A stretch of 64,000 nucleotides of DNA from an uncultured delta proteobacterium (GCA_963704165.1 CAVPHD010000004.1:352001-416000), one strand, 5' to 3'; positions 24,810 to 52,406 are shown, counted from the stretch's first letter. Notes: generated from the sequence alone by a model not told the origin. Numbers and translations: made by a program.

Positions 24810-26154
24810 ATGCGCAAGCTCGCGATACTGCTCTGCCTCGCCGTCTCGGTGAACGCGTTCGCCGCAGAAAAAGGTTCGGAGGACGTCCTCCCGAACATGC
24901 CCTTCAAAGAGGGCGACACGATCACGTTCGATCAGCTCGAGAAGCTGAAGGACTTCCTGCCCCCGCAGTTCTGGGAGAACCGCGAGTTCTTCTTCTACGA
25001 GGGCATGCAGCTCGAAGTCGGCCCGGCGATGCGCGACTACACCGAAGCCGAGCCCTACAAGGCGGCGAGCGAGAAGTTCAAGGGCCAGACCAAGATCGTC
25101 GACGACGGCGGCATCTCGGGGTTCGTCGCCGGTCGGCCGTTCGCGACCGAGGCGATCGACTGCAAGGGGGATCCGCAGGCCGCCACCAAGATCATCTGGA
25201 ACTTCAACAAGGTCTGGAACGGCGACGGTGCGGACTCGACCTGGTCGTACACGTACTGGGATCGAGGCGAGCAGCTGCCGCTGTACTACGAGGGCACGCG
25301 CGCGAGCGATCGCGCTCACCAATCGCGTCGAGCCGGAGTACCTCGAGAAGAACGACAGCGACATCTTCCCGAACGAGAAGCGCATGAACGTGTTCGGCAT
25401 CGAGGTCGAGGCCCCGTTCGACGCTCGCGGCATCCTCGTGCTGACCTACCGCTACAAGTCGGCCGACGGGCCGCTGAAGCAGGCCAAGAACGACGACACC
25501 TGGGTGTACGTCCCCGACCTGCGGCGCGTGCGCCGCATCTCGTCGGCGCAGCGCACGGACTCGGTGCAGGGCACGGACTTCACGATGGACGACCTGCGCA
25601 GCTTCTCGGGGATTCCGCCGCAGTACGAGTGGAAGTGCGTCGGCGAGCAGACCGTGATCGGTCCGATGAACACCAAGTCGCTCGCCTACCCCTACTCCGA
25701 TTCGTACAACTTCGGTCCGTACGGTTTCTCGTACGCGAGCGACCGATGGGAGGTCCGCAACGCCTGGATCGTCCGCTTCGATCCGCGGAACGAGGACCAC
25801 CCGTACCACCACAAGGACATCTACATCGACAAGCAGACCTACGAGCCGATCTACAGCTTCGCGTACGACCGAAAGAAGGAGCTGTGGAAGATCATCTGGC
25901 ACAACCACCGCTGGAGCGAGGACTGGGACGGGAAGAAGAACAAGGACCCGAAGGCCTCGGACGGCGTGTGGTACGCGGGCTGGGAAGGCGTCCCCGAGCC
26001 GAAGGATCTTCGCGTGATCAGCGACATCATCGTCAACGTGCAGACCGGCACGGGGAACCGGATCGAGTTCTGGAACAGCAACGGAGAGCCGCTCTCGAGC
26101 AAGGGCAAGATCCGCCGCTACATCGACATCGGGCGTCTCAACAAAGGCCGCTAG
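24810..26154 (+). CDS. DUF1329 / outer-membrane lipoprotein-sorting-like exported protein, frameshift near 25300
   Basis: Signal peptide, DPQAATKIIWN, DDTWVYVPDLRRVRRISSAQRTD, YDRKKELWK. Confidence 0.85.
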
Positions 26155-26616: not shown

Positions 26617-27554
26617 ATGAAACAGATCCGGAACCGGGTGACCGAGCTTCTCGGCGTCGAGATCCCGATCGTGCAGGCGCCGATGGGCTGGATCGCGCGC
26701 GCGCCGCTCGCGTCGGCGGTCTCGAACGCCGGCGGCATGGGCATCATCGAGACCTCCTCCGGCGAACTCGACGCGGTGCGCGAGGAGATCCGCAAGATGC
26801 GCGATCTCACCGACAAGCCGTTCGGCGTCAACATCGCGCAGATGTTCGTGCGCGACCCGAAGATCGTCGATTTCGTCGTCGCGCAGGGTGTGCGCTTCGT
26901 CACCACCTCGGCCGGCGATCCGACGAAGCACACCACGCAGCTGAAGTCGGCGGGGCTGACCGTCTTTCACGTCGTTCCGACGCTGCGCGCGGCGCAGAAG
27001 GCGATCGAAGCCGGCGTGGACGGCCTGGTCGTCGAGGGCGGCGAGGGGGAGGATTCAAGAACCCGCGCGACGTCGCGACGATGGTTCTGCTGCCGCTGAT
27101 CTGCTCGCGCGTCGGTGTGCCGGTGATCGCGGCCGGGGGCATCTGCGACGGACGGTCGATGGCCGCCGCCTTCGCGCTCGGTGCGGAAGGCGTTCAGATG
27201 GGTACGCGCATGGTGTCGGCCGCGGAATCGCCGGTCCACGCGAACTTCAAGCAGGCGATTTGCGATGCGGCCGAAACCGACACGGTGTTCCTGAATCGCC
27301 ACCACCGGCCGGGCCTTCGAGCGCTGCGAACGCAGCGCACCGAGCGGCTCGAGCGCGACGAGAAAGTCGAAATGAGCGAGCTCGGCCGGGTGCTCGAGCT
27401 CTACTTCGGCGGCGACATGGAGGCGTCGATCGCGCTTTCCGGCCAGGTCTCGGGACGGATCGAGTCGGTTCGCCCGGTCGCGGAGATCCTGCGCGACACG
27501 ATGCGAGAGTTCGGCGAAGTCGCCGAGCGGCTCGGCGGTCTCGTCTCGGGTTAG
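26617..27554 (+). CDS. Nitronate monooxygenase / FabK-like FMN oxidoreductase, frameshift near 27050
   Basis: PIVQAPMG, KPFGVNI, VVEGGEG(GGF), VIAAGGICDGR, GVQMGTR. Confidence 0.88.
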
Positions 27555-27564
27555 GGACCTTGGG

Positions 27565-27999
27565 CTACGACTCGCCCGGTGCCGGCGGCTTGGTCGCCAG
27601 CGCGATCCCCTGCGCCCCGGCTTCCTGCGCGATGTCGAGGATGTTGACGGCCTGACCGAGCAGCACCTTCTTGTCCCCGCGCAGGATCACGATCTTCTCG
27701 CGCGCCTTGTCCAGGGCCTCCTTGAGCGCCGCGGGTAGATTCGCCTCCGCGACCTCGACGCCATCGACCTCGATGCCACCGCCCGCGGTGACCGTGACGC
27801 TGACACCGGACGGCGTCGTCGACGCGACCGCCGAGCTCGGCAGATCGACTTCCTTGCCCTGATTCGAAACCACGCTCGTCGTGACCATGAAGATGATCAG
27901 CAGGACGAGGAAGATGTCCGTCAGCGGAGTGATGTTGATTTCGGCGACGATCCCATCGTCGTCGCCGTCGCCTCCACTAGGCAGGGAGCGGGCGGCCAT
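27565..27999 (-). CDS. exbD: Biopolymer transporter ExbD/TolR
   Basis: EINITPLTDIFLVLLIIFMV with the conserved TM Asp, and VILRGDK. Confidence 0.93.
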   Translation of the reverse strand: MAARSLPSGGDGDDDGIVAEINITPLTDIFLVLLIIFMVTTSVVSNQGKEVDLPSSAVASTTPSGVSVTVTAGGGIEVDGVEVAEANLPAALKEALDKAREKIVILRGDKKVLLGQAVNILDIAQEAGAQGIALATKPPAPGES

Positions 28000-28747
28000 G
28001 CCGTACCTCCTCGGGCTTCTCGTCCGGGTAGGTCGCGCTCGCCGATTCGACGTAGAGCAGCGCCTGGATCAGGCGTTCGCAGGAGCGCGCGAAGATCCCG
28101 GCGATCGCACCCGCGCGGACCTGCAGGTAGTTGAAGGCGGCGAGCGCCAGAATCGCGACGAGCAGGCCGACCGCGGTTGCGACCAGCGCTTCGGAGATCC
28201 CCGCCGCGACGACCGCGAAGCCGCCGGAGCCCTGCACCGCCATGTCGTGGAAGGCCTTGAGAATTCCCCAGACGGTTCCGAGCAGGCCGATGAACGGTGC
28301 GAGCGATCCGATCGTTCCCAGCATCCAGAGTCCACGGCGCATCTCGGTGGTCGCTTCGCTGCGCGAGGTCGCGAGCACGCTGTTCAGGTCCTCGAGCGCG
28401 ATGTTTCGCCAGCGCAGCCCCTCGAGGAAGATCCCGGCGAGCGGCGTCTTCGCCGACTCGCAGAGCGAGCGCGCCGTGACGAGATCGTGTTTCACGAGCG
28501 CATCGACGACGCCGCGTGTCAGGTCTCGACTGCGGCGATCGATCCCCGCGTAGCGGACCAGCTGCTGGATGACGACGGCGACTCCGATCACCGAGCACAA
28601 GGCCAGCGGGATGACCGTGAGCCGGCCGACCCAGAGAAGGTGAAGGATGGTCGCGGTATCGAACGTGCTCACGATCTGCCCGGCACCGGTGAGATCACCA
28701 GCGGCCTGCGTCGCGACGTTCACTGCAGTCTCGGTTACTGGATCCAA
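27977..28747 (-). CDS. exbB: MotA/TolQ/ExbB proton channel protein
   Basis: TIGSLAPFIGLLGTVWGILKAF and GISEALVATAVGLLVAI. Start is uncertain. Confidence 0.93.
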   Translation of the reverse strand: MDPVTETAVNVATQAAGDLTGAGQIVSTFDTATILHLLWVGRLTVIPLALCSVIGVAVVIQQLVRYAGIDRRSRDLTRGVVDALVKHDLVTARSLCESAKTPLAGIFLEGLRWRNIALEDLNSVLATSRSEATTEMRRGLWMLGTIGSLAPFIGLLGTVWGILKAFHDMAVQGSGGFAVVAAGISEALVATAVGLLVAILALAAFNYLQVRAGAIAGIFARSCERLIQALLYVESASATYPDEKPEEVRHGRPLPA

Positions 28748-28789
28748 GGTCGGCCCTTTTCCTTTGCGGGGTTGATCAACACGAGCGCG

Positions 28790-28817
28790 TCAAGCTATCC
28801 GATCGGGGAGTCGATCG
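28790..28817 (+). promoter_or_regulatory. Possible sigma-28-like promoter TCAA-N16-GTCGATCG
   Basis: Direct reading in the exbB/tonB divergent region, about 270 nt upstream of the TonB-like gene. Confidence 0.25.
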
Positions 28818-29086
28818 CAGGGTCTGGTGGCCGCGTTGACGCTCGCTGGGAACATGCTTAGCATGCGATCGCGATTCTCCGGTCCAGCGTCGCCACCGAA
28901 TGCCCCTACTCCGGGGTGCGTCGAATTGGCAGCTCGGATGTTTGAGCCATTCGAGGCGACTACCGATGAGGCATCGGCTCCTGGCTGCCAGCGCATGAGT
29001 CCGCAGATCGAGCGCAGGCAGCGAGGGAGTGGCGGCGACACTTCGAGAGGTGACGCCACCACAAAGCCAGGGGGTCCACGCGAGGC

Positions 29087-30268
29087 ATGAGTACCCAGCT
29101 CCTAGGCATCCGCCACCGGGCGCGAAAAACGCCGCTTCAGGCCCGTAGGGTCGGCGCGGCGTTCCGTGCAGGCGGAGCCGGAGTCGCCGTCGCACGCGAG
29201 CCCTTCCCGGGCATCCATGTCGGTGGCGAGAGCCACCGCGCCGACACGCTGAAGTCCGGCACGGTCTCCGCGCTGCTCCATGCGGGCTTCCTGGGACTCC
29301 TGATCTTGCTCGCCTGGATGACGCCTGCGATCCGCGAGGAGATCCTGCCCGTTCAGCTGATCAAGGAAGAGCCGAAGCCCGTTGCGAAGCGGGAAGAGCC
29401 GAAACCCGAACCGATTCCCGAGCCCGCGGTCGAGCCCGCGCCGGCGCCGAAGGCCCTGGCCGAGCGCCGTTCGATGGACTTCGCTCCCCAGGCGCAGGCG
29501 ATGGCGCCGCAGATCGTGAATCCGACGGTGGTGGCTCAGGCATCCCCGCAGCTCAACGCGCAGAAGCTCGAGATGAACCAGGTCGCCGCGGTCGTCGCCC
29601 CGCAGAACATTTCGCAGGCGACCGTCGTCGCCGAGCGTGTGACGGCCGTGAACTCCGTCGCCGTGGCCCAGACCGCGAAGGTGGACCTCGGCACGGCCGC
29701 GGCGCCCGCGCTTCGCGGCCCGGCGAATACGGCGCTGGCGGCGGGGCCTTCGGTCGGGCCGCGACAGATCGCCGCAGCGGGAGACACGATCGGAACGGGC
29801 ACGGCCGTCGACACGGGCACCGGCTCCTCGGTCCGCGAGGGAATCGCCAGCAACCGCGACGTGCTCGGCTCGCCCGACGGAGCGCCGCTCGCGAACGTTT
29901 CGACCCGTGTCGGCGAGGGATTCATGCGCGGCGATGGCGGCAGTGGCAGCGGCGGTGGCGACATCAGCGACTGCCTCTCGCGGCCGGAAGTCCTCCAGTA
30001 TCAGGAGCAGGTGCGCCAGCGCATGTACGCGCGCTGGGTCGTGCCCGGAGATGTGCCGGTCAACCAGAAGGTCCAGCTCCGCTTCGCACTCGACGCGAGC
30101 GGCTCGGTGATGAAGACCGAACTCGTCAGCGCGAGCGACTCCGGACTCGGGCAGACGGCCGTCGACGCGCTTCGATCCGCGGCGCCGTTCGCCTCGATGC
30201 CGGAGCGCGTGCGCTGCCTCGCGCGCCGTACGCTGATCGGCACGTTCAGCGTTCCCGCCGTAAACTGA
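29087..30268 (+). CDS. TonB/TolA-family energy transducer
   Basis: TM with SxxxH (SALLHAG), Pro/Glu/Lys-rich spacer, Ala/Gly-rich linker, C-terminal TonB_C-like domain (YQEQVRQRMYARW...FALDASGSV...AAPF). Confidence 0.85.
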   Translation: MSTQLLGIRHRARKTPLQARRVGAAFRAGGAGVAVAREPFPGIHVGGESHRADTLKSGTVSALLHAGFLGLLILLAWMTPAIREEILPVQLIKEEPKPVAKREEPKPEPIPEPAVEPAPAPKALAERRSMDFAPQAQAMAPQIVNPTVVAQASPQLNAQKLEMNQVAAVVAPQNISQATVVAERVTAVNSVAVAQTAKVDLGTAAAPALRGPANTALAAGPSVGPRQIAAAGDTIGTGTAVDTGTGSSVREGIASNRDVLGSPDGAPLANVSTRVGEGFMRGDGGSGSGGGDISDCLSRPEVLQYQEQVRQRMYARWVVPGDVPVNQKVQLRFALDASGSVMKTELVSASDSGLGQTAVDALRSAAPFASMPERVRCLARRTLIGTFSVPAVN

Positions 30269-30272
30269 CTCG

Positions 30273-33200
30273 ATGAGTCGTCTTTCCACCCGCGCGTTCC
30301 TCCTCGCGAGCTTCGCTCTTGCCTCCGTCACGCCGACGCTCGCGCACGCGCAGCAGGCCAAGCAGAAGGTCGTGCTCGAGTACGACGACCAGGAGCGGCT
30401 CGCGCGTCGCAAGACCGACACCAACGGCGACGGCGCATTCGACGAGACCGTCTTCTACAAGAACGACGTTCCCGAGCGCGCCGAGAGCGACACGAACTAC
30501 GACGGCAAGACCGACCTGTGGGTCACCTTCGACGTGAGCGGAAAACCGCTCGCCCAGGAGCGCGACTCGAACTTCGACGGCAAGCGCGATCAGTGGATCC
30601 AGCTCGAGAACGAGCAGCCCAAGGTCCAACGCGACGACAAGAACGGCGACGGCGAGCCGGAGTCGGTGGTGTACTTCGAGAACGGCGTGCGCACCCGCTC
30701 CGAAGAGGATTCGAACGGAGACGGCCGCATCGACCGCTGGGTGACCTATCAGGACGGCAACCCGGCGCGCGTCGAGGACGACACGAACGCCGACGGCAAG
30801 GTCGACGTGCGCGGCGAGTTCAACCCCGACGGCTCCAAGAGCATCGAGGTCCAGGACACCAACTCCGACGGCCGATTCGATGTGACGATCCGCTACGAGA
30901 ACGGCGTGAAGGCGCGTGTCGAAGAAGACATGAATGGTGACGGTCAGCCGGACGTGATCACGAGCTACGAATCCGAGATCCTCGTGAGGCGCGAGGCCGA
31001 CACCGATGGAAACGGGAGCTTCGACACCGTTTCGAACTACCGAAACGGCGTCGAAGCGCGCCAGACGCGCGATCTCGACGGAGACGGGAACGCGGAGCTC
31101 GTCGCGACGTTCGACGCCCAGGGCGACAAGATCCGCGAGGAGATCTTCGCGGCCGGCTCGAACATCCCGCAGGCCGTTCGCACCTACGCCGGCGGCGTGC
31201 GAACTCGCGAAGAGCAGGACACGAACGGCGACGGCGTTCTCGATCTCGCGACCGACTACGCGGGCGAGGAGCCGAGCCGAAGCGTCGCCGACACCAACCA
31301 CGACGGGAAGCCGGACACCACGATCGTCTTCGGCGCCGGCCAGAAGGTCCGCCAGGAAGAGGACCGGAACGGCGACGGCGAGATCGACGCCCGTTACGCC
31401 TTCGACGAGGACGGAAAGGTCACCTCGGAAGAGCTCGACGACGACCACGACGGCCGCTTCGAGAACGTCGCGACATCGAAGCTCGGCCTGATGGAGCGGC
31501 GCACGATCGACGCGAACTCCGACGGCAATCCGGAACGCATCGAAGTGTACGGCGAAGGCCGGCTCGTCCGGGTCGAGATCGACGAGAACCGCGACGGCAC
31601 GATCGATCTCTGGAACTTCTTCGATCCCGAGAAGCGTCTCGAAAAGCAGGAGCAGGACGTCGACCACGACGGCCGGATCGACACCTGGGTGGTGCTCGAC
31701 CCGGGAAGCGGCAAGGAGCTCCGCGTCCTCAAGGACACGAACTCCGACGGCAAGGCCGATACCTGGCGAACCAACGACCCGGCCGGATCGACGCTGCGGT
31801 TCGAAGAGGACAAGGACTTCGACGGCGAGCCCGATCGCAGCGTGGAGTTCGCCGACGGTCGCCCCGTGCGTTTCAGCGAGGACGCGAACCGGGACGGCAA
31901 GCCGGAGGCGCGAGGCGAGCTCGGGCCGAATGGCGAGGTGCTGCGCGAGGAGCGCGATACCAACGGCGACGGGAAGCTCGATCTGCGCGTCGAGTACGCG
32001 AACGGTCAGAAGGTGCGCGAGGAGCGCGACAGCAAGGACTCCGGCCGCTTCGACATCGTGACCGTCTTCGAGAACGGCGTGCCGGTCCGCCAGGAGCAGG
32101 ACACCCGAGGCACCGGCACGTTCGACTCCGTGATCGAGTTCAAGGGCGGCAAGGAGTCCACACAGCAGCGCGATTCGAACGGCGACGGCTCGATCGATCT
32201 CTGGATCACGCTCGACACCGACGGCAAGCCGGCCCGCGAGGAGATCGACTCGAACGCCGACGGCAAGCCCGACGTCGTGAAGCTGTACTCCGGCGGTGAG
32301 CTCGGCCGCGAGGAGCAGGATCTCGACTTCGACGGCCGCTACGACCTGATCGTCTCCTACGAGGGTGGACTGCGAGCGCACTCCGAGGCCGACACGAACT
32401 CCGACGGAAAGCCCGACGTGCTGATCGAGTTCCGCGGCGGGCGGAAGGTCTCTCAGAGCGAGGACACGAACCACGACGGAAAGCCCGACGTTCTGACTTC
32501 ATTCGGACCCGACGAAGTTCCGCTTCGCAGCGAAGCCGACACCGACGGCGACGGGAGGCTCGAGACCGTGTCGTTCCTCGAGAACGGCGTCGTCGTGCGC
32601 ACCGAGAAGGACTCGAACGCCGACGGTAGAGCGGACGTCTTCGTCTGGCTCGACGGCGACAAGGTCGTGCGTCAGGAAGAGGACTCGAACTTCGACGGCG
32701 TCGTCGACAAGCGCTCCAGCATCGGCAAGTCAGGCTCGCAGGTGCAGGAAGCCGACGCGAACGGCGACGGCCGGATCGACACCTGGCTCACGGTCGACGC
32801 CAACGGGAACGTCACGCAGAAGAAAGAGGACAAGGACGGGGACGGGACTCCCGACGTGACCGTCTCGCTTCGCGACGGTAAGCCCGTGAAGCTCGAGCAG
32901 AACGCCGCGGGCAAGGCCTGCGTCGAACTCATCCAGAGCTACGACGCGGCCGGGAACGTCGTCTCCGAGAGCAAGGACACCAATGGCGACTGCAGGATCG
33001 ACGTCTGGACGTACCTCGAGAACGGAAACGTCGTGCGTCAGGGTCAGGACACGCGTGCCACCGGCCGACCCGACGTGCTGACGATCTTCGGCGCCGATGG
33101 CCGGCCGATCGGCCAGGAGCTGGTCTCCGATCCCAAGGGAAAACGCCCGGACAAGAAGCTCACGCTCGATGCGAACGGTCAGGTCACGTCGCAGTGTGTC

Positions 33201-33557
33201 GACACCAACGCGAACGGCAGCCTCGACGCGCGTGCGGTCGTCCGGAACGGCGTCGTGAGCGAGGTCTGGATCGACACGAAGGGCAAGGGCATCGCCGATC
33301 AGCGCGAGGTCTATCAGGAAGGCCAGCGCGTCGCGCTCGAGGCCGACACCAACGCGGATCGCAAAGTCGATGTCGTCCAGACTTTCCAGGGCGGCCAGCT
33401 CGCCCGCCAGGACGAGGACACCGACTTCGACGGCGTGATCGATCAGCGCTTCGAGGGCGACAAGGCCGTGGCCGTTCCCCCCGGCACGAAGATCTCGACG
33501 ACGAAGCTCGGGCCGCTCGACTGCGGCAGCTTCTCGAAGTTCTGGACCGCGCGCTGA
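30273..33557 (+). CDS. Large exported protein of about 40 tandem 24-25 aa repeats, each with a DxNxDGxxD Ca-binding-type loop
   Basis: Signal peptide ending AHA. Repeats such as DTNGDGAFDE, DSNGDGRIDR and DTNHDGKPDV are separated by two short beta-strand-like segments. Confidence 0.85.
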   Translation: MSRLSTRAFLLASFALASVTPTLAHAQQAKQKVVLEYDDQERLARRKTDTNGDGAFDETVFYKNDVPERAESDTNYDGKTDLWVTFDVSGKPLAQERDSNFDGKRDQWIQLENEQPKVQRDDKNGDGEPESVVYFENGVRTRSEEDSNGDGRIDRWVTYQDGNPARVEDDTNADGKVDVRGEFNPDGSKSIEVQDTNSDGRFDVTIRYENGVKARVEEDMNGDGQPDVITSYESEILVRREADTDGNGSFDTVSNYRNGVEARQTRDLDGDGNAELVATFDAQGDKIREEIFAAGSNIPQAVRTYAGGVRTREEQDTNGDGVLDLATDYAGEEPSRSVADTNHDGKPDTTIVFGAGQKVRQEEDRNGDGEIDARYAFDEDGKVTSEELDDDHDGRFENVATSKLGLMERRTIDANSDGNPERIEVYGEGRLVRVEIDENRDGTIDLWNFFDPEKRLEKQEQDVDHDGRIDTWVVLDPGSGKELRVLKDTNSDGKADTWRTNDPAGSTLRFEEDKDFDGEPDRSVEFADGRPVRFSEDANRDGKPEARGELGPNGEVLREERDTNGDGKLDLRVEYANGQKVREERDSKDSGRFDIVTVFENGVPVRQEQDTRGTGTFDSVIEFKGGKESTQQRDSNGDGSIDLWITLDTDGKPAREEIDSNADGKPDVVKLYSGGELGREEQDLDFDGRYDLIVSYEGGLRAHSEADTNSDGKPDVLIEFRGGRKVSQSEDTNHDGKPDVLTSFGPDEVPLRSEADTDGDGRLETVSFLENGVVVRTEKDSNADGRADVFVWLDGDKVVRQEEDSNFDGVVDKRSSIGKSGSQVQEADANGDGRIDTWLTVDANGNVTQKKEDKDGDGTPDVTVSLRDGKPVKLEQNAAGKACVELIQSYDAAGNVVSESKDTNGDCRIDVWTYLENGNVVRQGQDTRATGRPDVLTIFGADGRPIGQELVSDPKGKRPDKKLTLDANGQVTSQCVDTNANGSLDARAVVRNGVVSEVWIDTKGKGIADQREVYQEGQRVALEADTNADRKVDVVQTFQGGQLARQDEDTDFDGVIDQRFEGDKAVAVPPGTKISTTKLGPLDCGSFSKFWTAR

Positions 33558-33576: not shown

Positions 33577-34089
33577 TCAGGACGCCGTCGCCGCGCCTCT
33601 CGACTCGTGCGCGAGCAGCCAGCGCTTTCGCTCGATCCCGCCCGCGTAGCCGACCAGTCGCCCGTCGGACCCGATCGCGCGGTGACAGGGCACGATCAGC
33701 CAGATCGGATTCGCACCGTTCGCGGCTCCGACGGCTCGCGACGCCGATCTGGCGCCGATCGCCCGAGCGAGCGCAGCGTAGGACGTCGTCGTCCCCGCGC
33801 GCACGTCGCGAAGCGCCGACCAGACGCGTCGCTGGAACTCCGTTCCGACCGGCGCGATCTCGATCGCGTCGAGCGCGGCGAGGTCGCCTCCGAACCAGGC
33901 GCTCACGCGCGCGATCAGGTCGTCGGCGGATCGCGAGGCGCAGATCTCGACCGGATCGAGCCGACGCACGAGCGCTCGCTCCACTCTCGGCCAGCCGTCG
34001 GCGAATGCGAGGCCGTAGACGCGCCCCGAAGACCTCGCAAACCGCAGCGCGCCGAGCGGTGTTCCGATCTCGCCGATCTCGAGCTTCAT
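33577..34089 (-). CDS. ogt: Methylated-DNA--protein-cysteine methyltransferase
   Basis: GTEFQRRVW, SRAVGAANGANP, PCHR active site, GYAGGIERKRWLL. Confidence 0.95.
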   Translation of the reverse strand: MKLEIGEIGTPLGALRFARSSGRVYGLAFADGWPRVERALVRRLDPVEICASRSADDLIARVSAWFGGDLAALDAIEIAPVGTEFQRRVWSALRDVRAGTTTSYAALARAIGARSASRAVGAANGANPIWLIVPCHRAIGSDGRLVGYAGGIERKRWLLAHESRGAATAS

Positions 34090-35548
34090 CTCGTCTCCTC
34101 TTTCGCGAGGCTCTGCCAGAGCGCCATCGCCGCATACGATCGCCAGGGTCGGAAGCTCTCCGCCCAGCGTTCGGCCTCGGCCGGGCGGATCGGCTTTTGA
34201 TCGCGTGCGAGCGCCTTGCGCAGCGCGAGATCGCCGGCGGGAAACGCGTCGGGCTCGCCGAGCGCGCGCATCGCGATGTACTGCGCCGTCCAGCTCCCGA
34301 TGCCGCGCAGCGCCGACAAGCGCGCGACGGAGTCGTCGAGCCCGAGCGCACCGTCGAGCACCGTGGTCCCGCGCGCGATCGCGTCGGCGAAGCCGCGGAT
34401 CGCGTCGGCGCGCGCCCTCGGCAGCCCGAGCGAGCCGACATCCGCGTTCGCGAGAACCGCCGGCGACGGAAACAGGTGAGTGAGCCCGGCCGGCGCACCC
34501 GCAATTGGCTTCCCGAAAGCGCGAACCAGACGCGCGGCCAGCGTCGAGGCGCCGCGAACACTCACCTGCTGGCCGAGAATCGCGCGCACCCCGAGCTCGA
34601 ACGGGTCCCACGTGCCGGGGACTCGAAGTCCCGGTCGCGCCTCGAGGTGTCGTCGGATTTCCGAGCTGCCGGCGAGTGCGCCGTGGACCACGAGCGGATC
34701 CGCGTCGAGGTCGAAGATCCGCCGCACGCGTTCGATCACGCCGAGCAGATCCGTCCCGCGCGGCGCGGACACGCGCAACAGCAGCGACGTCGCGTCGGCG
34801 ACGGGAGTGACTTCGAACCAACCCGGACTTCCGCCGATCTCGATGGTTCGCCGGTAGCCGGCTCGTCCCCGCTCTCGACGCCCGCGATCGCGCGACCGGC
34901 AAGGTACTCCGACAGGCCACGCCAGTCGAACGGCGGCCGGTACGCGAGTCGAAGCGCGAACGCTTCGCCGGTGCCGGCGGTCGTTTCGGTCCTCGCACGG
35001 CGGACTTCGCGCGGGGCGCGGCCGAAGCGGCTCCGGAACGCGTGATTGAACTGTCGCACGCTCGCGAACCCGGCGGCGAAGGCGATCTCGGTGATCGGGC
35101 GATCGCTCTCGTCGAGCAGCGCGCGCGAGACGTGCACGCGCCGCGCGCGCGCGATCTCCGCGGGCGAGGCGCCGAGATGCTTCGAGAACAACCGGCGCAG
35201 CTGCCGCCCACCCACGCCGAGCCTCGACGCGAGTCGTTCGACGTCGCCCCCGTCGAGCGCCCCGGCATCGATCAGACGCAGCGCACGCGAGACGATCGCC
35301 GAGCTTCCGAGCCACGCCGGGGTGCCGGGGGCGGTCTCGGGCCGACAGCGCCGGCAGGCGCGAAAGCCCGCGCTCTCGGCAGCGGCGGCGCAGGCGTAGA
35401 AGCGGATGTTCCGGAGCAGCGGCCGCCGCGCCGGGCAGACCGGCCGACAGTAGACGCCCGTCGTCGTGACTCCGACGAAGAAGCGACCGTCGAAGCGGCG
35501 GTCGCGCGTCTTCATCGCGTCGTAACAGAGGCCCCGATCGAGCTCCAT
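34086..35548 (-). CDS. alkA: Ada-AlkA fusion (Ada Zn/AraC domain plus DNA-3-methyladenine glycosylase II), frameshift near 34860
   Basis: TTGVYCRPVC, FRACRRCRP, AraC HTH, RAILGQQVS, LRGIGSWTA, DAFPAGDL, RPWRSYA. Confidence 0.92.
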
Positions 35549-35882: not shown

Positions 35883-36581
35883 ATGTCGATCTCACGGGGG
35901 TGGTGTGCCGCACTCGTCGTCGCGGTGCTCACGGCGGCAGGGCCAGTGCACTCGGCTCCGATTCTCTACACGTTCAGCGGCGGGGACGCCGTTCTTCGGC
36001 TGACCTCCGGCGGCGTCACGCTGTCCGAGTCCGCACCTCTCGCGCTCGACGGGGTCTTCGCGACGTTCGATGGGGTGGGTTCCGGAGAGCTCGTCGACTT
36101 CGAGTTCTCGATCGTGCCCGAGCAGACGGTGATGCTCGACATCCTGCTCGGAGGCTACGACTGCATCCAGCTTCACACCGCGACGCTGACGCCCGGTGTT
36201 GGCTATACCCACCTCTTCCAGCAGAACAACGGCGGGGGGAACTACAGCATCGCCGCCGCGCCGGTGCTCACCTCGACGACACTCGACGTGATGAGCTCGG
36301 TGCCCGGTCCGCCTCCGGTCCCGTTCGCGTTCTCCGGAAACAGCTCGACCCCGCTCGTCGCGACGGTCGACATCTCCACCGGCACCACCTTGACGCTCGA
36401 AGGAATCACCATCGGCTCGTTCACGAACGCGGATTTCTCGACCATCCCCGTAGGCGAGACGGTCTTCGTGAAGATGGATCTCAGCTTTGCGGGCATGGCG
36501 CCCGTACCCGAACCGGCCGCGGTTTTCTTGATCGGGCTAGGATGCGTGGGATTGGCCATACTACGAGGACGACGGGTCTGA
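35883..36581 (+). CDS. PEP-CTERM sorting-domain protein
   Basis: Signal peptide from ATG 35883 and C-terminal VPEPAAVFLIGLGCVGLAILRGRRV. Confidence 0.88.
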   Translation: MSISRGWCAALVVAVLTAAGPVHSAPILYTFSGGDAVLRLTSGGVTLSESAPLALDGVFATFDGVGSGELVDFEFSIVPEQTVMLDILLGGYDCIQLHTATLTPGVGYTHLFQQNNGGGNYSIAAAPVLTSTTLDVMSSVPGPPPVPFAFSGNSSTPLVATVDISTGTTLTLEGITIGSFTNADFSTIPVGETVFVKMDLSFAGMAPVPEPAAVFLIGLGCVGLAILRGRRV

Positions 36582-36619
36582 CTCGACCTGGGCAGCAGCT
36601 GAGAAGGGGAGGAGATTCC

Positions 36620-37270
36620 ATGGCGACGAAGTGGCTCCATCGAGCCGTGGCGATTGCAGGCCTTTGGGCGTTGACGACGACTGGGGCGTCGGCCCTCACA
36701 CTGCAGATCACCTCGGGGGGTCTGTCCGCCTCCAACCTTAATTACGGCTGTCCGACCGGCTCGAGCAATTGCTCGCTCAGCCGGGACTACCAGCTCTCCG
36801 GACTGGCGCCGGCGACCGGCACGATCGTCATCAACGATCCAGGCACGATCGCCACCATCTCGCTCTCGATCGCGGGTGCGACCTTCGATCCGCTCGGCAT
36901 CGGCTCGCCGATCGTGTTCGGTCCCACGACCTACTCGGCCACGCTGAGCGGCGGCAGCCTGTCGACCACGCCGATCGGCCCCGGCACCGGCGGCATCGAC
37001 TACGGATTCGGCACGGGTTCGGTGACGGGGAGCGCGGACGCGGTTGGCTTTGCGGTCTCGCCCTCGGTCAACATCACCTGTGCCTACCCGGGCGGTACGG
37101 GGACCTGTGGCATCACGTTCAGCGGCGCTGCTTTCTCGGGAATCGCGGGCCACCAGTGGTCGCACACCTTCAACGTCAGCGTCGCTGCCGTGCCGCTGCC
37201 GGAGCCGGCGACCGCGCTCTTGATCGCGCTCGCGGCCGCAGGGCTTCTGATTCGCTCCCGCGCCGACTGA
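36620..37270 (+). CDS. PEP-CTERM sorting-domain protein
   Basis: GGAG RBS, signal peptide ending ASA, C-terminal VPLPEPATALLIALAAAGLLIRSR. Confidence 0.88.
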   Translation: MATKWLHRAVAIAGLWALTTTGASALTLQITSGGLSASNLNYGCPTGSSNCSLSRDYQLSGLAPATGTIVINDPGTIATISLSIAGATFDPLGIGSPIVFGPTTYSATLSGGSLSTTPIGPGTGGIDYGFGTGSVTGSADAVGFAVSPSVNITCAYPGGTGTCGITFSGAAFSGIAGHQWSHTFNVSVAAVPLPEPATALLIALAAAGLLIRSRAD

Positions 37271-43194: not shown

Positions 43195-44061
43195 ATGACG
43201 ACCCTCACGACCACGCCAGCCTCCTCGTCCAGACATCGGCTCGACGCCGCGCCGCCGCGCGTGGTGCTGCTGCCCGTCGTGACGACGCTGTGCGCGATTG
43301 GCGTAGTCCTCGGGTTCCTCGCCCGCGACGAGATGTACGTCACTCCCGATGCCGGACTCGGGTACGGACTCGGAGTCGCGGGACTGTGCGCGCTCTGCTC
43401 GCTCCTGCTCTACTCGCTGAGGAAGCGCGCGCGCTCTCTTCGGTCGTGGGGGGCTCTCCGGCACTGGTTCCACGTCCACATGATGCTCGGAGTGGTCGGT
43501 CCCACGCTGGTCCTCTTCCACGCCAACTTCGAAGTGCACTCGACGAACGCGGCGGTCGCTCTCGGAGCGATGGTGATCGTCGCCGCCAGTGGCTTCGTCG
43601 GGCGATTCGCCTACTCGCGCGTTCATCTGGGATTGTTCGGCCAGCGCGAGACCCTCCGCGACGTCAGCGCGCGAGCGGATGCGAGCCGCAGCGCGCTTCA
43701 CACCGCGCTGCGCGCCGTTCCGGAAGTCGAACTTTGCGTTCGCGAGTTCGAGCAGCGGGCGCTCGCTCGGTCCGGTGGGGTTCTGGCCGAGCTCTGGCGC
43801 GCGGTCGAGCTCGGCCGACAAACGCGTTCGATCCGACGGCGCGCGCGAGCGATGCTTCGCCAGGCTTCGCCGGCTGCTCTGCCGGCGGGTGCGAGTGCGG
43901 TCTCTCGCGGTCTCGACACCCACCTCGCACTGGTGCGGCGCGTGGCGGAGTTCGGTTTCTACGAGGGCGTTCTGTCCCTCTGGCACGCGCTGCACGTTCC
44001 GCTCGGCGTCGTGCTCTACATCGCGGCGGCGATTCATGTGATCGCCGTGCATCTCTACTGA
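43195..44061 (+). CDS. Inner-membrane His-rich protein of multiheme cytochrome cluster (cytochrome b/ferric-reductase-like)
   Basis: About five hydrophobic segments with TM His residues: WFHVHMMLG, LVLFHANF, WHALHVPL, IHVIAVHLY. Confidence 0.75.
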   Translation: MTTLTTTPASSSRHRLDAAPPRVVLLPVVTTLCAIGVVLGFLARDEMYVTPDAGLGYGLGVAGLCALCSLLLYSLRKRARSLRSWGALRHWFHVHMMLGVVGPTLVLFHANFEVHSTNAAVALGAMVIVAASGFVGRFAYSRVHLGLFGQRETLRDVSARADASRSALHTALRAVPEVELCVREFEQRALARSGGVLAELWRAVELGRQTRSIRRRARAMLRQASPAALPAGASAVSRGLDTHLALVRRVAEFGFYEGVLSLWHALHVPLGVVLYIAAAIHVIAVHLY

Positions 44062-45630
44062 GTGCGCGCGAACGCACTCGCGAGTCGGCTGGCACTCGTC
44101 GTCGGTCTCTTGGCTTCGAGCGCCGGCGCGCAGACGTTCGAGCGACTCGTGATGCCCGGAGTGCTCTCGAAGGCTCACGCGGACCTCGAGTCCGACTGTT
44201 CGAAGTGCCACACGCCCTTCAAGCGCGCGGAGCAGTCGGAGCTCTGCCTCGGCTGCCACGACCACCAAGCGGTCGCAGCCGACATTCGCGACAAGCGGGG
44301 ATTCCACGGGACGGCTCCCCCCGTCGAAGGCGCCGAGTGCAGATCGTGTCATCCGGAGCACAAGGGGCGCGACGCCGACATCATCGGTCTCGAGCGGAGC
44401 TCCTTCCCCCACGACTTCACCGACTACCCGTTGCGCGGTGCGCACGTGCGGGTCTCCTGCGAAGGATGTCACGACCCGGACAAGGCCTTCCGCGACGCAC
44501 GCGCGAGCTGTGCCGACTGCCACGCCGCGGCGGACGTGCACCGCGGGGAGCTCGGAAAGGACTGCGAAAGCTGTCACACGGAAGAGCGCTGGCGAGAGGC
44601 TCGATTCGACCACGGCAAGACGAAATTCCCTCTCGAAGGAAAGCACCGGGACGTCGCGTGCGCGCTTTGCCACGCGGGCGAGCGCTATTCGGGAATACCG
44701 ATGGACTGCGTCGGCTGTCATCGCGTGGATGACGTCCACCGGGGTCGATTCGGCGACGCGTGCGAGAGCTGTCATACGAGCGGCCAGTGGAAGACGCAGA
44801 ACTTCGACCACGCAGGAAAGACCCGGTTCCCACTCACCGGCAAGCATGCGAAGGTGCCTTGCGAGGGCTGTCATCCGGACGGCCTGGTCGATCAGAAGCT
44901 CGAGCTGAACTGCCTCTCGTGTCACCGCGGAGACGACGTCCACGACGGACGAAACGGCGCCGACTGCGAGCGATGCCACGGAACATCTGCCTGGAAGCCC
45001 GCGACGTTCGATCACGATCGGAACACGGAGTTTCCGCTTCACGGAGCCCATCGAGAAGTGAGCTGTGCGGCCTGTCACACGAAGCCGGTGCATCAACAGA
45101 AGCTGGGTTCGACCTGCATCGCCTGTCACGTCGCGGACGACGTGCACAAAGAGCAGCTCGGCGGCGACTGCGGCCGCTGTCACGGCGAGATCAGCTGGAA
45201 GGAGAAGGTCAGGTTCGATCACGACCTGGCGCGTTTTCCATTGCTCGGGCTGCACGCCGTCGTCGCATGCGAGGAGTGCCACTCGACCGGGGTCTATCGC
45301 GATACGGAGCAGAAGTGCGTCGCCTGCCACGCGCGGCAAGACGTGCACGAGGACCGGCTGGGTCCGAAGTGCGAGGTCTGCCACACCCCCAACGGCTGGA
45401 AGGTCTGGAAGTTCGACCACGCCACGCAGACGAAGTTCCCGCTCCGGGGCGGCCACTCTCAAGTGGCGTGTGAGACCTGCCACGTCGAGCCGGTCGCGAC
45501 CAAGCCCTCTCTCTCGACCGGATGCGACTCCTGTCACGGCGCGGAGGATCCCCACCGAGGTGCGTTCGGAAGGAACTGCGAGCGCTGTCACGGCGAGCAG
45601 TCGTGGAGAGACGTGAGGATCGCGCGCTGA
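44062..45630 (+). CDS. Periplasmic multiheme cytochrome c with 21 CxxCH motifs (seven triheme modules)
   Basis: Signal peptide ending AGA. 21 CxxCH counted by hand. Repeating FDH..T.FPL.G.H..V.C unit. Confidence 0.95.
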   Translation: MRANALASRLALVVGLLASSAGAQTFERLVMPGVLSKAHADLESDCSKCHTPFKRAEQSELCLGCHDHQAVAADIRDKRGFHGTAPPVEGAECRSCHPEHKGRDADIIGLERSSFPHDFTDYPLRGAHVRVSCEGCHDPDKAFRDARASCADCHAAADVHRGELGKDCESCHTEERWREARFDHGKTKFPLEGKHRDVACALCHAGERYSGIPMDCVGCHRVDDVHRGRFGDACESCHTSGQWKTQNFDHAGKTRFPLTGKHAKVPCEGCHPDGLVDQKLELNCLSCHRGDDVHDGRNGADCERCHGTSAWKPATFDHDRNTEFPLHGAHREVSCAACHTKPVHQQKLGSTCIACHVADDVHKEQLGGDCGRCHGEISWKEKVRFDHDLARFPLLGLHAVVACEECHSTGVYRDTEQKCVACHARQDVHEDRLGPKCEVCHTPNGWKVWKFDHATQTKFPLRGGHSQVACETCHVEPVATKPSLSTGCDSCHGAEDPHRGAFGRNCERCHGEQSWRDVRIAR

Positions 45631-45642
45631 CCTTCGCCTGAC

Positions 45643-47208
45643 TCAGAACAGGCCGAGCAATCCTCGGCTCTTCCCGGATTCGGTCTCGAGATAGCTTGCG
45701 ATCTCTGGATGGCCGGCCTGACGGGCCTGCGCTGCCGCGGTGAGGCCGATCTCGTTCTTTGCGCCGATGCGTACGTCTCGCCGGACCAGAAGCTCCACGA
45801 CCGCCTGATGTCCCGACGCTGCTGCAAACATCAGGGCCGTGTCGCGACGTTGCCCACGCGCATCGGGATCCGCATTCGCGTCGAGGAGGGCTTTGGCGGT
45901 CGCGAGCTGCCCGTTGCTCGCGGCGAGCATGAGCGCGGTGTTCCCCAGGCGGTTGGGTGCGTCGATCCCGGCACCGCGGTCGAGCAGGGCGCGCACGGTG
46001 ACGACATCGCCCGCGGCCGCAGCACGCGAGAGCACGGGCGTCCCATCCGCGCAGATCGTCGCGGTCGAGGCGCCGTGTTCGACGAGGGCGGCGGAGATCG
46101 CCGGGCGTTGACCGCGCAGCGCCAGACACAGCATCGACTCGCCAGAGTCGTCACGCCTCTCCGCTCGTGCTCCGAGAGCGAGCAGCGCGCGCGCGGCATC
46201 GGAGCTTCCAGAGCGTATCGCGTAGACGAGAGGCGGGATCCCGTCCGCGTCCGGATCGTCGGGACGGGCACCTGCGCGGACGAGAAGCTGGACGATCTCG
46301 GCCGAGCCGTGACTTGCGGCCCAGCCGAGCGGGGTTCGTCGCGCGCCATCGACGGCGTTCGGATTTGCGGAGTTCTCCAGCAATACGCTGACCGTGCTCA
46401 CGTGGCCTTCGCTCGAAGCGAGGGACAGCGCGTTCCGGCCATCTGCCGCGCGAGCGCGGAGGTCCGCGTGCGCGCGCACGAGCGCGGAGACGATCTCGGC
46501 GTGGCCGTTGCGTGCGGCTGCGAGCAGGGGGGTGTCACCTGCATCGTCGCGCACCTCGAGCGAGACCCTTCGCGCGATCAGACCGAGGGCGAGGTCGGTC
46601 TCGCCACGCCTCGAAGCGACGACGAGCGCGTCGGTTCCGTCGTGGGTCTCCGCCAACCAGGCCGCGGAATCCGCCGCACGCACCGACGCGGGAACGGGCT
46701 GCGGCGCCGCCCGCGTCTTTGCCCGCGCGCGTTCCTTGGCGGGTGCCGGGCTCCGAGCAGTTCTCGCCTGCGCGTCCTCGGGCTCCGCCTCGAGTTCGTC
46801 GAGCTTCGCGATCGCCCCCGCGTGTCCCTGATCCGCGGCCGCCCGAAACCAGCGCAACGCGGCCTTCCGATCGCGCTTCGTTCCCCAGCCGTCGCGATAC
46901 AGTCCAGCGACACAGAATTGTGACCGAGCATCGCCGCTCTCTGCCGAGGTGAGCCACCAATGGAACGCCTGCTCGGGGTTCTGCTTCACGCCGCGTCCCG
47001 AGCGATACAGCGAGCCGAGCTGGTATTGCGCGTCGGGATCTCCCTTCTCGGCGAGTACGCTCCAGAGAGTCGCCGCGCGTTCGAAGTCGCGCAGGCGAGC
47101 CGCCAGACGGGCGTCCTCCGCCGGGTCGGCGAGAGAGGTCGAGGCGGTCGAGAGCGCCACGGCCACCACCACGAGAAGCGCCCAGACGCTAGTGAAGTGG
47201 TGTGCCAC
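45643..47208 (-). CDS. Exported Sel1-repeat plus ankyrin-repeat protein
   Basis: Signal peptide. Sel1 repeats (AQYQLGSLYRSGRGV, WFRAAADQGH). Ankyrin repeats (GDTPLLAAARNGH, GNTALMLAASNG). GTG 47208 is the probable start. Confidence 0.9.
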   Translation of the reverse strand: MAHHFTSVWALLVVVAVALSTASTSLADPAEDARLAARLRDFERAATLWSVLAEKGDPDAQYQLGSLYRSGRGVKQNPEQAFHWWLTSAESGDARSQFCVAGLYRDGWGTKRDRKAALRWFRAAADQGHAGAIAKLDELEAEPEDAQARTARSPAPAKERARAKTRAAPQPVPASVRAADSAAWLAETHDGTDALVVASRRGETDLALGLIARRVSLEVRDDAGDTPLLAAARNGHAEIVSALVRAHADLRARAADGRNALSLASSEGHVSTVSVLLENSANPNAVDGARRTPLGWAASHGSAEIVQLLVRAGARPDDPDADGIPPLVYAIRSGSSDAARALLALGARAERRDDSGESMLCLALRGQRPAISAALVEHGASTATICADGTPVLSRAAAAGDVVTVRALLDRGAGIDAPNRLGNTALMLAASNGQLATAKALLDANADPDARGQRRDTALMFAAASGHQAVVELLVRRDVRIGAKNEIGLTAAAQARQAGHPEIASYLETESGKSRGLLGLF

Positions 47209-48511
47209 GTTTCGTCTCCGTCTCGATTCCGATCGCTTGCAGGAACGCGGTTGGCAGCACACCCCCCACGCAAACGATCACGGCGTCGCTCGCGACGTCT
47301 TCGATCCCGTCTCCGGTCTCAAGTACCGCGACGCCCGGGCGGATCTCGACGACCGTGGAGCCGAGCCGAACGAACAGCTGACCCGAATCGCGCGCAGCTT
47401 CGACACGGGCGCGGTTTGCCGGCTTCACGCGCGAGAACGCATCTCCCCGGTAAGAAAGCGTGACGCGAGTGCCGGGCTCGCTCGCGAGGCCCAGCGCCGC
47501 CTCGAGCGCGCTGTCTCCGCCGCCGACGACGAGTACGCTCTGACCGCGGTACTGCTCCGGATCGACGAGCCGGTAGACGACGTGCGGCGACTCCTCTCCG
47601 GGAACTCCGAGCTTCGCGGGCGTTCCGCGACGACCGATCGCGAGCACGAGCGTTCGCGCGAGGTGACTCGAACGCGAGGTCCTCACTTCGAAGCCGGTTT
47701 CCACTCGTCCGACGGCCTCGACGCGTTCCTGGTAACGGACGTCGAGGCCGGTCCCTCGAACGACATCGGTGAAGAGCTGGAGCAGCGACTCCTTGCTGAT
47801 CTCGCCCGTCGGGATCCGACCGTACAGAGGCAAGGTGCAGGCGGACGTCATGACGATCTTGCCTCGGGGATAGTGCGCGACCGTTCCACCCAGGCTCTCC
47901 TGCTCGATCGTCGCGAACCGAAGACCCTTCTCCTTCGCGGCGAGCGAGGCCGAGAGACCGGCGGGTCCGGCGCCGACGATCAAGACGTCGAGAACCTCGT
48001 CCGAGGTGCGCCCGTCGAGAGCTCCGACGACCGACTCGATCACCTGTCGGCCCTGCTCGATGGCATTCCGGATCAGGCCCATTCCTCCGAGCTCGCCGGC
48101 CACGAAGATACCCGGCACAGCGGTCTGGAAGTCGGGGCCGAGGCGCGGGATCTCGACTCCGCGACTCTCGGTTCCCAACACGAGCGTGATCGCGTCGAAC
48201 GGGCAGGCGGTCTGGCACGCGCCGTGACCGATGCAGTGCGTGGGGTTCACGAGCACGGCCTTTCCGCGCACGAGACCCAGCACGTTCTCCTCCGGGCAGG
48301 CTTTCACGCACGAGCCGCAGCCGAGACAGCGATTCGGATTGATCGAAGGGTGAAGCGACGCGGGCTCGGTGAGCTTCGATGCGATGGCTTCGCGAAGCGT
48401 CGCAGCGCTTCGGCGCTCCATTCTTCGCCTCGACGCGGAGTATCCGGCGAGCGCGAGCCCGAACGGGACGAGATAGAGCAGAACGAAGACGGAAGACGAC
48501 TCAGAAATCAT
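47189..48511 (-). CDS. Membrane-anchored ferredoxin (two Fe-S motifs) fused to a TrxB/YpdA-like FAD/NAD(P)H oxidoreductase
   Basis: N-terminal TM, CLGCGSCVKACP, CIGHGACQTACP, GAGPAG, GGGDSALEAA, SYRG. No redox CxxC. Confidence 0.9.
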   Translation of the reverse strand: MISESSSVFVLLYLVPFGLALAGYSASRRRMERRSAATLREAIASKLTEPASLHPSINPNRCLGCGSCVKACPEENVLGLVRGKAVLVNPTHCIGHGACQTACPFDAITLVLGTESRGVEIPRLGPDFQTAVPGIFVAGELGGMGLIRNAIEQGRQVIESVVGALDGRTSDEVLDVLIVGAGPAGLSASLAAKEKGLRFATIEQESLGGTVAHYPRGKIVMTSACTLPLYGRIPTGEISKESLLQLFTDVVRGTGLDVRYQERVEAVGRVETGFEVRTSRSSHLARTLVLAIGRRGTPAKLGVPGEESPHVVYRLVDPEQYRGQSVLVVGGGDSALEAALGLASEPGTRVTLSYRGDAFSRVKPANRARVEAARDSGQLFVRLGSTVVEIRPGVAVLETGDGIEDVASDAVIVCVGGVLPTAFLQAIGIETETKRGTPLH

Positions 48512-52303: not shown

Positions 52304-52406
52304 CGCCTCAAGATCGACATCTGCGTACGCGCTGACTGTGAGCTGGATTACATCGCTGCGGCTCCGGCTCGCTCGCGGATGGTCGCGCGACGGGTACTCT
52401 AGGGCC

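Follow-up and report, generated by a model that had tools for sequence, protein, structure and literature searches.

What does an ExbB-ExbD motor pull on when the gene of its transducer is followed directly by that of a giant repeat protein, and no receptor gene lies nearby? This question is raised by a locus in a 64,000-nucleotide stretch of DNA (GCA_963704165.1 CAVPHD010000004.1:352001-416000, the window) from an uncultured delta proteobacterium, whose genome is called G000 here. At positions 27,565 to 33,557 of the window, an exbB-exbD pair diverges from a gene for a TonB/TolA-like transducer (the arm), and the ATG of a gene for an exported protein with Dx[DN]xDG repeats (the rod) follows the stop codon of the arm gene after 4 bases (Table 1). 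This arrangement, described in an initial annotation of the window, is borne out by open reading frames at these positions and by Pfam matches. That the four genes make up an undescribed module, driven by the proton motive force and with a repeat protein as partner, is well supported by genomics, since the linkage is conserved, the motor forms a clade of its own, and the motor was lost together with the arm in one genus. We found no description of it in the literature searched, outside which most subscription papers and supplements fall. Our preferred reading, held at somewhat less than an even chance, is that of a dedicated trans-envelope force module whose rod relays the pull to an anchor in the outer membrane, where the job would be structural. 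The module is likely distinct both from the cell's own Tol-Pal system and from the Ton systems that serve receptors in related genomes.

The arm and repeat genes are linked throughout the class of these genomes, which we take to be UBA9160. Our first protein search returned few full-length relatives of the rod, because it scored no more than 7992 candidates. Among the 26 loci fetched, the arm gene lies directly upstream of the repeat gene in all 20 that have enough flanking sequence, so the gene-neighbourhood search that had been proposed finds the repeat gene conserved beside the TonB-like gene. Fourteen of the 26 have the layout of the window (layout A), eight are cut by contig ends, and four have a layout B, in the order arm gene, rod gene, repeat lipoprotein gene and then, convergently, exbD, exbB, a vWA gene and a YiaD-like gene. 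In a draw of 151 Myxococcota genomes (28 of the class, G000 included, and 123 others), both the arm and the long repeat gene occur in 26 of the 28 and are missing from the same two; with G000 set aside, the pair is present in 25 of 27, adjacent in 24 and split by contig ends in one. The 123 others gave no long repeat match and four marginal arm matches. Class-wide, the module is single-copy, and its TonB-like gene is present in 160 of 191 genomes and in 80 of 82 genera. Two loci titled Spirochaetales (L023) and Gammaproteobacteria (L017) also carry the repeat gene; the ExbB of L023 nests in the class clade, so these titles may be mislabels.

The motor follows this pair, with one replacement and one loss. 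ExbB of the window's type (A-type) was found in 140 of the 191 class genomes, 138 of which also have the TonB-like gene. Among the 22 arm-positive genomes without it, 14 belong to one family, f1, and all 14 have an ExbB of a different clade (B-type), while the other eight mostly have a partial arm gene or one near a contig end, with one weak match. The B-type ExbB was detected in 14/14 tested f1 genomes lacking the A motor and in 0/3 A-type genomes tested; it lies about 6.5 kb or less from the TonB-like gene in nine cases, at 14 kb in one, and on another contig in four. In f1, the motor was thus swapped and the arm and repeat genes stayed together. Most arm-negative genomes belong to the genus g17 (17 listed and, judging from the numbering, probably nine further unlisted ones). 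The four of its arm-negative genomes that were tested (G087, G097, G255 and G257) have neither the TonB-like gene nor A-type ExbB, and G087 and G097 are without any repeat match, yet retain 9-10 matches to TonB-dependent receptors (TBDTs). Another g17 genome, G275, has all four genes together, with a shorter rod and a different neighbourhood. Many layout-A loci are flanked by a GldA/F/G-like ABC trio, which we do not count as part of the module: in G000 it lies elsewhere, on contig C7, and it is kept in 5/5 g17 genomes, four of which are without the module.

Class-wide synteny can be inherited, and the ABC trio, like aroA, flanks many loci without belonging to the module. The repeat protein could accordingly be an independent exported calcium-binding or adhesive protein, co-transcribed with the TonB-like gene and making no contact with its product. 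We regard this as the least probable of the alternatives and quite improbable in itself: the pair stays together through relocation (in layout B, in G275 and in the context of G000 itself) as other neighbours change, repeat proteins adjoin three different ExbB clades, and the arm and repeat genes were lost together in the g17 genomes checked.

The motor retains the residues by which this superfamily works. T158, E186 and T191 of ExbB align with T148, E176 and T181 of E. coli ExbB, so that the proton-channel residues are intact, and D28 of ExbD aligns with D25 of E. coli ExbD and D23 of TolR. Together with an SxxxH transducer that ends in a TonB/TolA C-domain, this Thr/Glu/Thr subunit and the transmembrane Asp of ExbD place the module in the ExbBD/TolQR motor-transducer superfamily. 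None of its proteins scores above an NCBIfam equivalog cut-off, ExbB falling below both tolQ and exbB. Two quick maximum-likelihood trees of the ExbB family were built, without bootstrap or approximately unbiased test, from 90 and 85 rows; for the second, 12 rows were dropped (long branches, near-duplicates and MotA-like sequences) and seven added. In both, the A-type motors form one clade with a long stem (SH-aLRT support 99 and 100), separate from tol-pal TolQs, AglR-like motors, TtpC/DUF3450-type Ton motors and the B-type, and with a sister group that is not resolved. The label AglR-like was read from the gene context of two-ExbD motors, the tree being built without an M. xanthus sequence. 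Grouping with canonical ExbBD, which the initial annotation had named as a result that would speak against a distinct machine, was not seen in these quick trees. A plasmid search for ExbB gave distant ExbBs only.

The arm has a short cytoplasmic N-terminus, a transmembrane helix (51-78), a linker (~115-290) and a TonB_2 C-terminal domain (293-388) with an invariant C296; residues ~84-92 are a probable motor box. The motif S61-x3-H65...L72...A76 in the helix matches S16/H20/L27/S31 of E. coli TonB, with Ala in place of the last Ser, so the SxxxH motif and long linker noted at the outset both hold. In the AlphaFold2 model of the arm alone, a disordered linker joins a transmembrane helix to a TonB/TolA C-domain. 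The linker is nevertheless conserved: the segment P119-G285 is 156-170 aa long in 38/42 alignment rows, and its column conservation is comparable to that of the folded domain. No clear periodicity was seen in the linker, and its length shows no obvious tracking of rod repeat deletions among the rows. A linker that varies little in sequence or length, and is nonetheless predicted to be disordered by itself, is as expected of one that folds on a partner.

In the adjacent protein, roughly the first 26 residues look by eye like a Sec-type signal, and 42 repeat units of 24-26 aa follow, degenerate ones included. It contains 33 matches to D-x-[ND]-x-[DN]-G; 1000 shuffles gave 0.5 on average and never more than 4. 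All 31 strict Dx[DN]xDG motifs lie in inter-strand loops and have D/E three residues after the G (31/31); a loop motif followed by a later acidic ligand is what PMC3123361 gives as the mark of calcium binding, which is predicted here from the motif. Among 42 homologues, no conserved lipobox was found, whereas the cap CGxFxxFW at the C-terminus is conserved, cysteines and FW motif included. Repeats 1-31 are nearly constant in number (3/42 rows lose any of them), and repeats 32-34 are often deleted. An AlphaFold2 model of the mature protein, built with 23 sequences, is a continuous single-layer beta-meander of about 85 strands with a mean predicted local distance difference test score (pLDDT) of 89; its predicted template modelling score of 0.37 makes the global shape uncertain. 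The model contains no domain other than the beta-meander and no tail domain. If straight, the rod would be about 40 nm long (84-86 strands x 4.8 A), and Ca2+ in the acidic loops probably makes it stiffer.

The closest fold matches of the rod are MORN1 (Z 9.6, root-mean-square deviation (rmsd) 5.0, 202 aligned residues) and an OspA mutant with an engineered sheet (Z 9.6, rmsd 4.6, 175 aligned), a Z that is middling for repeats; identity to such fold analogues is 8-13%. MORN and TCP sheets bind extended peptides, and the entries 6jle and 4by2 are listed as complexes of this kind. The net charge of the rod is about -100, and both sheet faces mix charged and apolar residues, with a maximum mean strand-position hydropathy of 1.1. 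Neither face being strongly hydrophobic, we rejected a lipid-bridge beta-groove of the LptA or AsmA-like kind. A reading as an Rhs/YD cage was rejected as well: Foldseek ranks Rhs first, but with a TM-score of 0.10 and an rmsd of about 58 A, the similarity is local only, and neither an RHS Pfam match nor a toxin-tail domain was found.

Whether the arm grips the rod was addressed by complex prediction. Rod residues 1-720 with arm residues 115-393 scored 0.36, as compared with 0.00 for the best control; the runs share at least 51% of their contacts, and the partner pLDDT is at least 56. In a benchmark, the complex mark was reached by 116/157 solved pairs and 2/215 mismatched pairs, and since 18 solved pairs and both mismatches fall in the range at or below 0.60, a score of 0.36 is weak support. 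The proposed modelling of the two proteins thus gave a score above controls that is nevertheless weak and comes without an interface. The weakness of this score also speaks for mere co-transcription of the two genes.

Our preferred scenario takes the task of the module from an analogy with TolA-TolB-Pal. TonB/TolA-type arms pull on receptors, TolB or Glt proteins. Here, ExbB-ExbD would use protons to exert a pull on the TonB-like arm, which would grip the exported repeat protein; the rod would serve as a periplasmic scaffold and extension that passes the pull to an outer-membrane anchor, and the output would be a structural envelope task, tethering or remodelling, rather than nutrient uptake. 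That the module is a dedicated one is supported by a separate Ton operon of the TtpC type next to a TBDT (L044) and by the full tol-pal operon of G000. The best candidate for the anchor is a lipoprotein with the same repeats, whose gene follows the rod gene in one sub-lineage. G000 itself has such a second repeat gene on contig C1, encoding a 447-aa lipoprotein with a lipobox, a glycine-rich segment, an acidic helical segment and about eight repeats. It stands with genes for a secreted vWA protein and a YiaD-like OmpA protein (C1:38085-41050, in the region L003:7086-14740), and it is exactly at this lipoprotein/vWA/YiaD site that the relatives with layout B have the arm-rod pair and a different ExbBD inserted. 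As for the roles first suggested for the repeat protein in a motor-driven envelope machine, the genomics supports the machine with its repeat partner, and the weak complex prediction does not decide among load, track and bridge.

Several points weigh against our preferred reading of a structural force module. The complex score lies in a range where, according to the tool, most predictions are wrong except for pairs that were already likely partners, and the prediction gave no interface, with repeats 30-42 outside the modelled part of the rod. The g17 loss and the f1 motor swap count as about one event each, since the genomes are related. The outer-membrane target is a candidate only: the repeat lipoprotein was not found in G275, although the four module genes are present there, and its N-terminus is poorly conserved between families. 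The remaining objections are those that point to uptake.

The main rival is that motor and arm energise receptors encoded elsewhere, the rod being a periplasmic helper comparable to the TPR/Ttp proteins of other Ton operons or to the N-terminal extensions of some receptors. Three genomes (G000, G062 and G072, 84-95% complete) show no ExbBD besides that of the module and a presumed TolQ, and nonetheless have 2-3 TBDT matches. We consider such Ton uptake with an accessory possible, though less probable than a structural task. In G000 (84% complete), the three MotA/ExbB matches are that of the module, a TolQ in a full tolQRA-tolB-pal operon on contig C7 and a MotA-like gene on C12, so no further ExbBD was found to serve its one canonical TonB, which adjoins a TBDT. 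The three TBDT matches of this genome all lie outside the window, the nearest 321 kb away on the contig of the module. Elsewhere in the class, TBDT matches occur in 27/27 genomes. Furthermore, motors from TBDT/iron-ABC loci share about 45% identity with that of the B-type, and the best Foldseek matches of the arm C-domain are the H. pylori TonB C-terminal domain (CTD) tied with TolA-III.

Repeat proteins of the same type that stand beside receptors in other lineages also favour uptake. For a shorter protein of 520-620 aa, whose 90% cluster includes an uncultured Desulfatiglans entry, the repeat gene is directly followed by exbB in 4/4 contigs with a long match and downstream DNA (seven fetched), and the motors of this lineage are a third ExbB clade next to repeat proteins. 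In one of its loci (L152:6097-12977), repeat gene, exbB, exbD and canonical tonB converge on a TBDT, two DUF4198 genes and a tetrapyrrole methylase gene, likely a cobalt or nickel uptake locus, so that here the repeat protein accompanies a canonical TonB operon beside a receptor. An 880-aa TBDT (P0009) even has about six Dx[DN]xDG hairpin repeats ahead of its plug. The association of such repeats with TonB-family machines thus extends beyond a single lineage. Since related repeats adjoin receptors or are fused to them, the module can be called receptor-less, as it was at first, with respect to its locus, and not necessarily with respect to its function.

Against uptake, inspection of 26 + 20 class loci, partly from the same genomes, showed no TBDT next to the module, as judged by called genes and BLAST labels and, in a subset, Pfam scans; this absence is not decisive, because Ton genes often lie apart from their receptors. 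The module is single-copy while TBDT matches number 1 to 32 per genome, the g17 genomes without the module keep their receptors, and the arm C-domain scores as TonB_2 (TolA-like), below the TonB_C cut-off. If the rod does carry force, a long calcium-loop beta-meander partner would be a new route by which the proton motive force is passed through the periplasm. Since such repeat proteins are paired with three motor clades and, in one case, fused to a receptor, deltaproteobacteria-like lineages may have here a general Ton/Tol accessory that has been overlooked. Both arm and rod have soluble parts that can be directly expressed and tested.

The coordinates of the module are given in Table 1. The exbD and exbB reading frames overlap by 23 bp, the true exbB start may be a few codons downstream of the called one, and the intergenic region between exbB and the arm gene is likely to hold two promoters. 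The flanks are unrelated to the module, as first described: a nitronate monooxygenase-like gene on the left and ada/alkA/ogt on the right. Several neighbours are split over two frames (a DUF1329 protein at 24810-26154, the nitronate monooxygenase-like gene at 26617-27554 and ada/alkA at 34086-35548), probably by assembly frameshifts, unlike the four module genes, which are intact. Farther right, the window has two adjoining exported proteins with PEP-CTERM-like tails (35883-37270; Pfam match for the first only) and a multiheme c-type cytochrome cluster with an ankyrin/Sel1 protein and a TPR protein (43195-52408). Elsewhere in G000, the stretch around its motA/motB (L002:1-12000, that is C12:5000-17000) contains many short broken reading frames, scores poorly under the codon usage of the genome and may be foreign or misbinned DNA.

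Table 1. Features of the motor-arm-rod locus, with positions in the window.
Feature	Position	Strand	Description
exbD/tolR-family motor subunit	27565-27999	-	144 aa; PF02472, E 2e-26; proton-binding Asp28
exbB/tolQ-family motor subunit	27977-28747	-	256 aa; PF01618, E 9e-30; class-specific 'A' clade
exbB-to-TonB-like divergent intergenic region	28748-29086	.	same layout in 14/26 loci
TonB/TolA-like force transducer (arm)	29087-30268	+	393 aa; TonB_2, E 3e-6
Exported repeat protein (rod)	30273-33557	+	1094 aa; 42 Dx[DN]xDG beta-hairpin units

Other motors also occur in the class. At L119 (contig C368 of G087, a g17 genome without the module), an AglR-like motor stands with two ExbD-like genes and a TPR lipoprotein gene; similar matches were seen in G097, G057 and G122, of which G057 and G122 have the module. 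L047 and L161:8897-11787 are motors with vWA partners of kinds described in PMC12204202, and in G156 one such motor separates the B motor from the rod genes. Short proteins of the same repeat type are common outside the class, with matches in 115/123 of the other Myxococcota genomes. Those read (L033-L038 and L048-L054) have 165-270 aa, 4-6 repeats, a mostly lipoprotein-like start and no adjacent motor, and several of their genes lie near lepA or rluB, sometimes as a tandem pair. An Atlas search gave no named cluster for the short repeat lipoprotein. Clusters of Myxococcota, Binatota, Thermodesulfobacteriota and Nitrospinota are among the Atlas look-alikes, a weak lead in view of a low recognition score.

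Among the known systems, Agl-Glt (AglRQS, GltG/J, GltA-K and CglB) belongs to the same motor superfamily, has a TonB-like arm, occurs in the same phylum, and resembles layout B in having a vWA protein and lipoproteins near the motor. GltC was found in 0/28 class genomes as compared with 123/123 other Myxococcota, the reverse of the distribution of the module, and for GltG, four class genomes gave nothing beyond FHA-region matches; the available part of a preprint likewise does not list the former UBA9160 among lineages with A-motility genes (bioRxiv 10.64898/2026.07.10.737566). The module, a core trait of this widespread uncultured class, might thus be a surface adhesion or gliding machine that replaces Agl-Glt, with a rod that reaches or crosses the outer membrane and with vWA proteins and lipoproteins coupling the motor to the substrate. 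Several observations fit this proposal: in layout B, the motor genes are surrounded by those of a repeat lipoprotein, a secreted vWA protein and a YiaD-like OmpA lipoprotein; the repeats are similar to the Leptospira adhesin Lsa25.6; and most Glt-bearing genomes have short repeat lipoprotein-like genes. It is, however, unlikely: the motor falls outside the AglR-like clade and has one ExbD instead of two, the arm is without an FHA domain, no outer-membrane barrel or export system was found linked, and f1 is the only family in which vWA and YiaD genes adjoin the module. The complementarity with GltC follows the class boundary and is therefore one phylogenetic contrast. Homology of the repeat proteins to GltK/CglC could not be confirmed; no named GltK was found among 87 matches, and none of the four gltC loci read has a short repeat lipoprotein gene next to gltC. 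CglC has no known domain, according to the part of PMC4488436 seen. In a bolder and only marginally less unlikely version, the motor would ratchet the conserved 165-residue arm along a ~40 nm calcium-stiffened rail docked on the same-repeat lipoprotein, doing the traction or adhesion job of Agl-Glt; the module would then be a fourth kind of TolQR/ExbBD-family envelope machine, one that defines the class.

The vWA force transducers (Williams-Jones et al. 2025, PMC12204202) resemble the module in being orphan TolQR/ExbBD-like motors with non-standard partners and an unassigned output. Their arms end in a vWA domain, whereas in the module the arm retains a TonB/TolA C-domain and it is the repeat rod that is new; as far as the consulted part of that paper goes, it does not describe the module. 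Lsa25.6 shares the Dx[DN]xDG hairpin repeats at a sub-cut-off level (model NF050087, 132.4 bits over six stretches, curated cut-off 150), but the rod is about five times longer than the model (196 positions) and has no lipobox conserved across homologues. MORN repeats, the OspA central sheet and the CPAP TCP domain are fold analogues, each a single-layer twisted beta-meander.

The closest comparisons are with Ton and Tol-Pal. Like Ton systems, the module has the motor residues, the SxxxH helix and a C-domain whose fold matches the TonB-CTD, and in another lineage, a canonical Ton operon that adjoins a TBDT includes a related repeat protein. Unlike Ton systems, including TtpC/DUF3450-type operons with TPR accessories, it adjoins no receptor gene in the class loci that were seen, its arm linker is conserved in sequence and not simply Pro-rich, and separate Ton systems coexist with it in most relatives. 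As initially noted, the locus contains no TBDT, tolB or pal; the module differs from Tol-Pal in having neither TolB propeller nor Pal, its partner is a 42-repeat beta-meander, and a complete tol-pal operon lies elsewhere in G000 with its TolQ in another clade. By the criteria tested, it belongs to neither Tol-Pal nor Agl-Glt and may belong to Ton; its working is Tol/Ton-like. With Tol-Pal it shares a 5:2-type motor, a TonB_2/TolA-like C-domain, a single copy in a housekeeping neighbourhood, and a transducer gene directly followed by that of a soluble exported partner. The output may differ from what we propose, but the repeat protein appears to be an undescribed partner of TonB-family machines.

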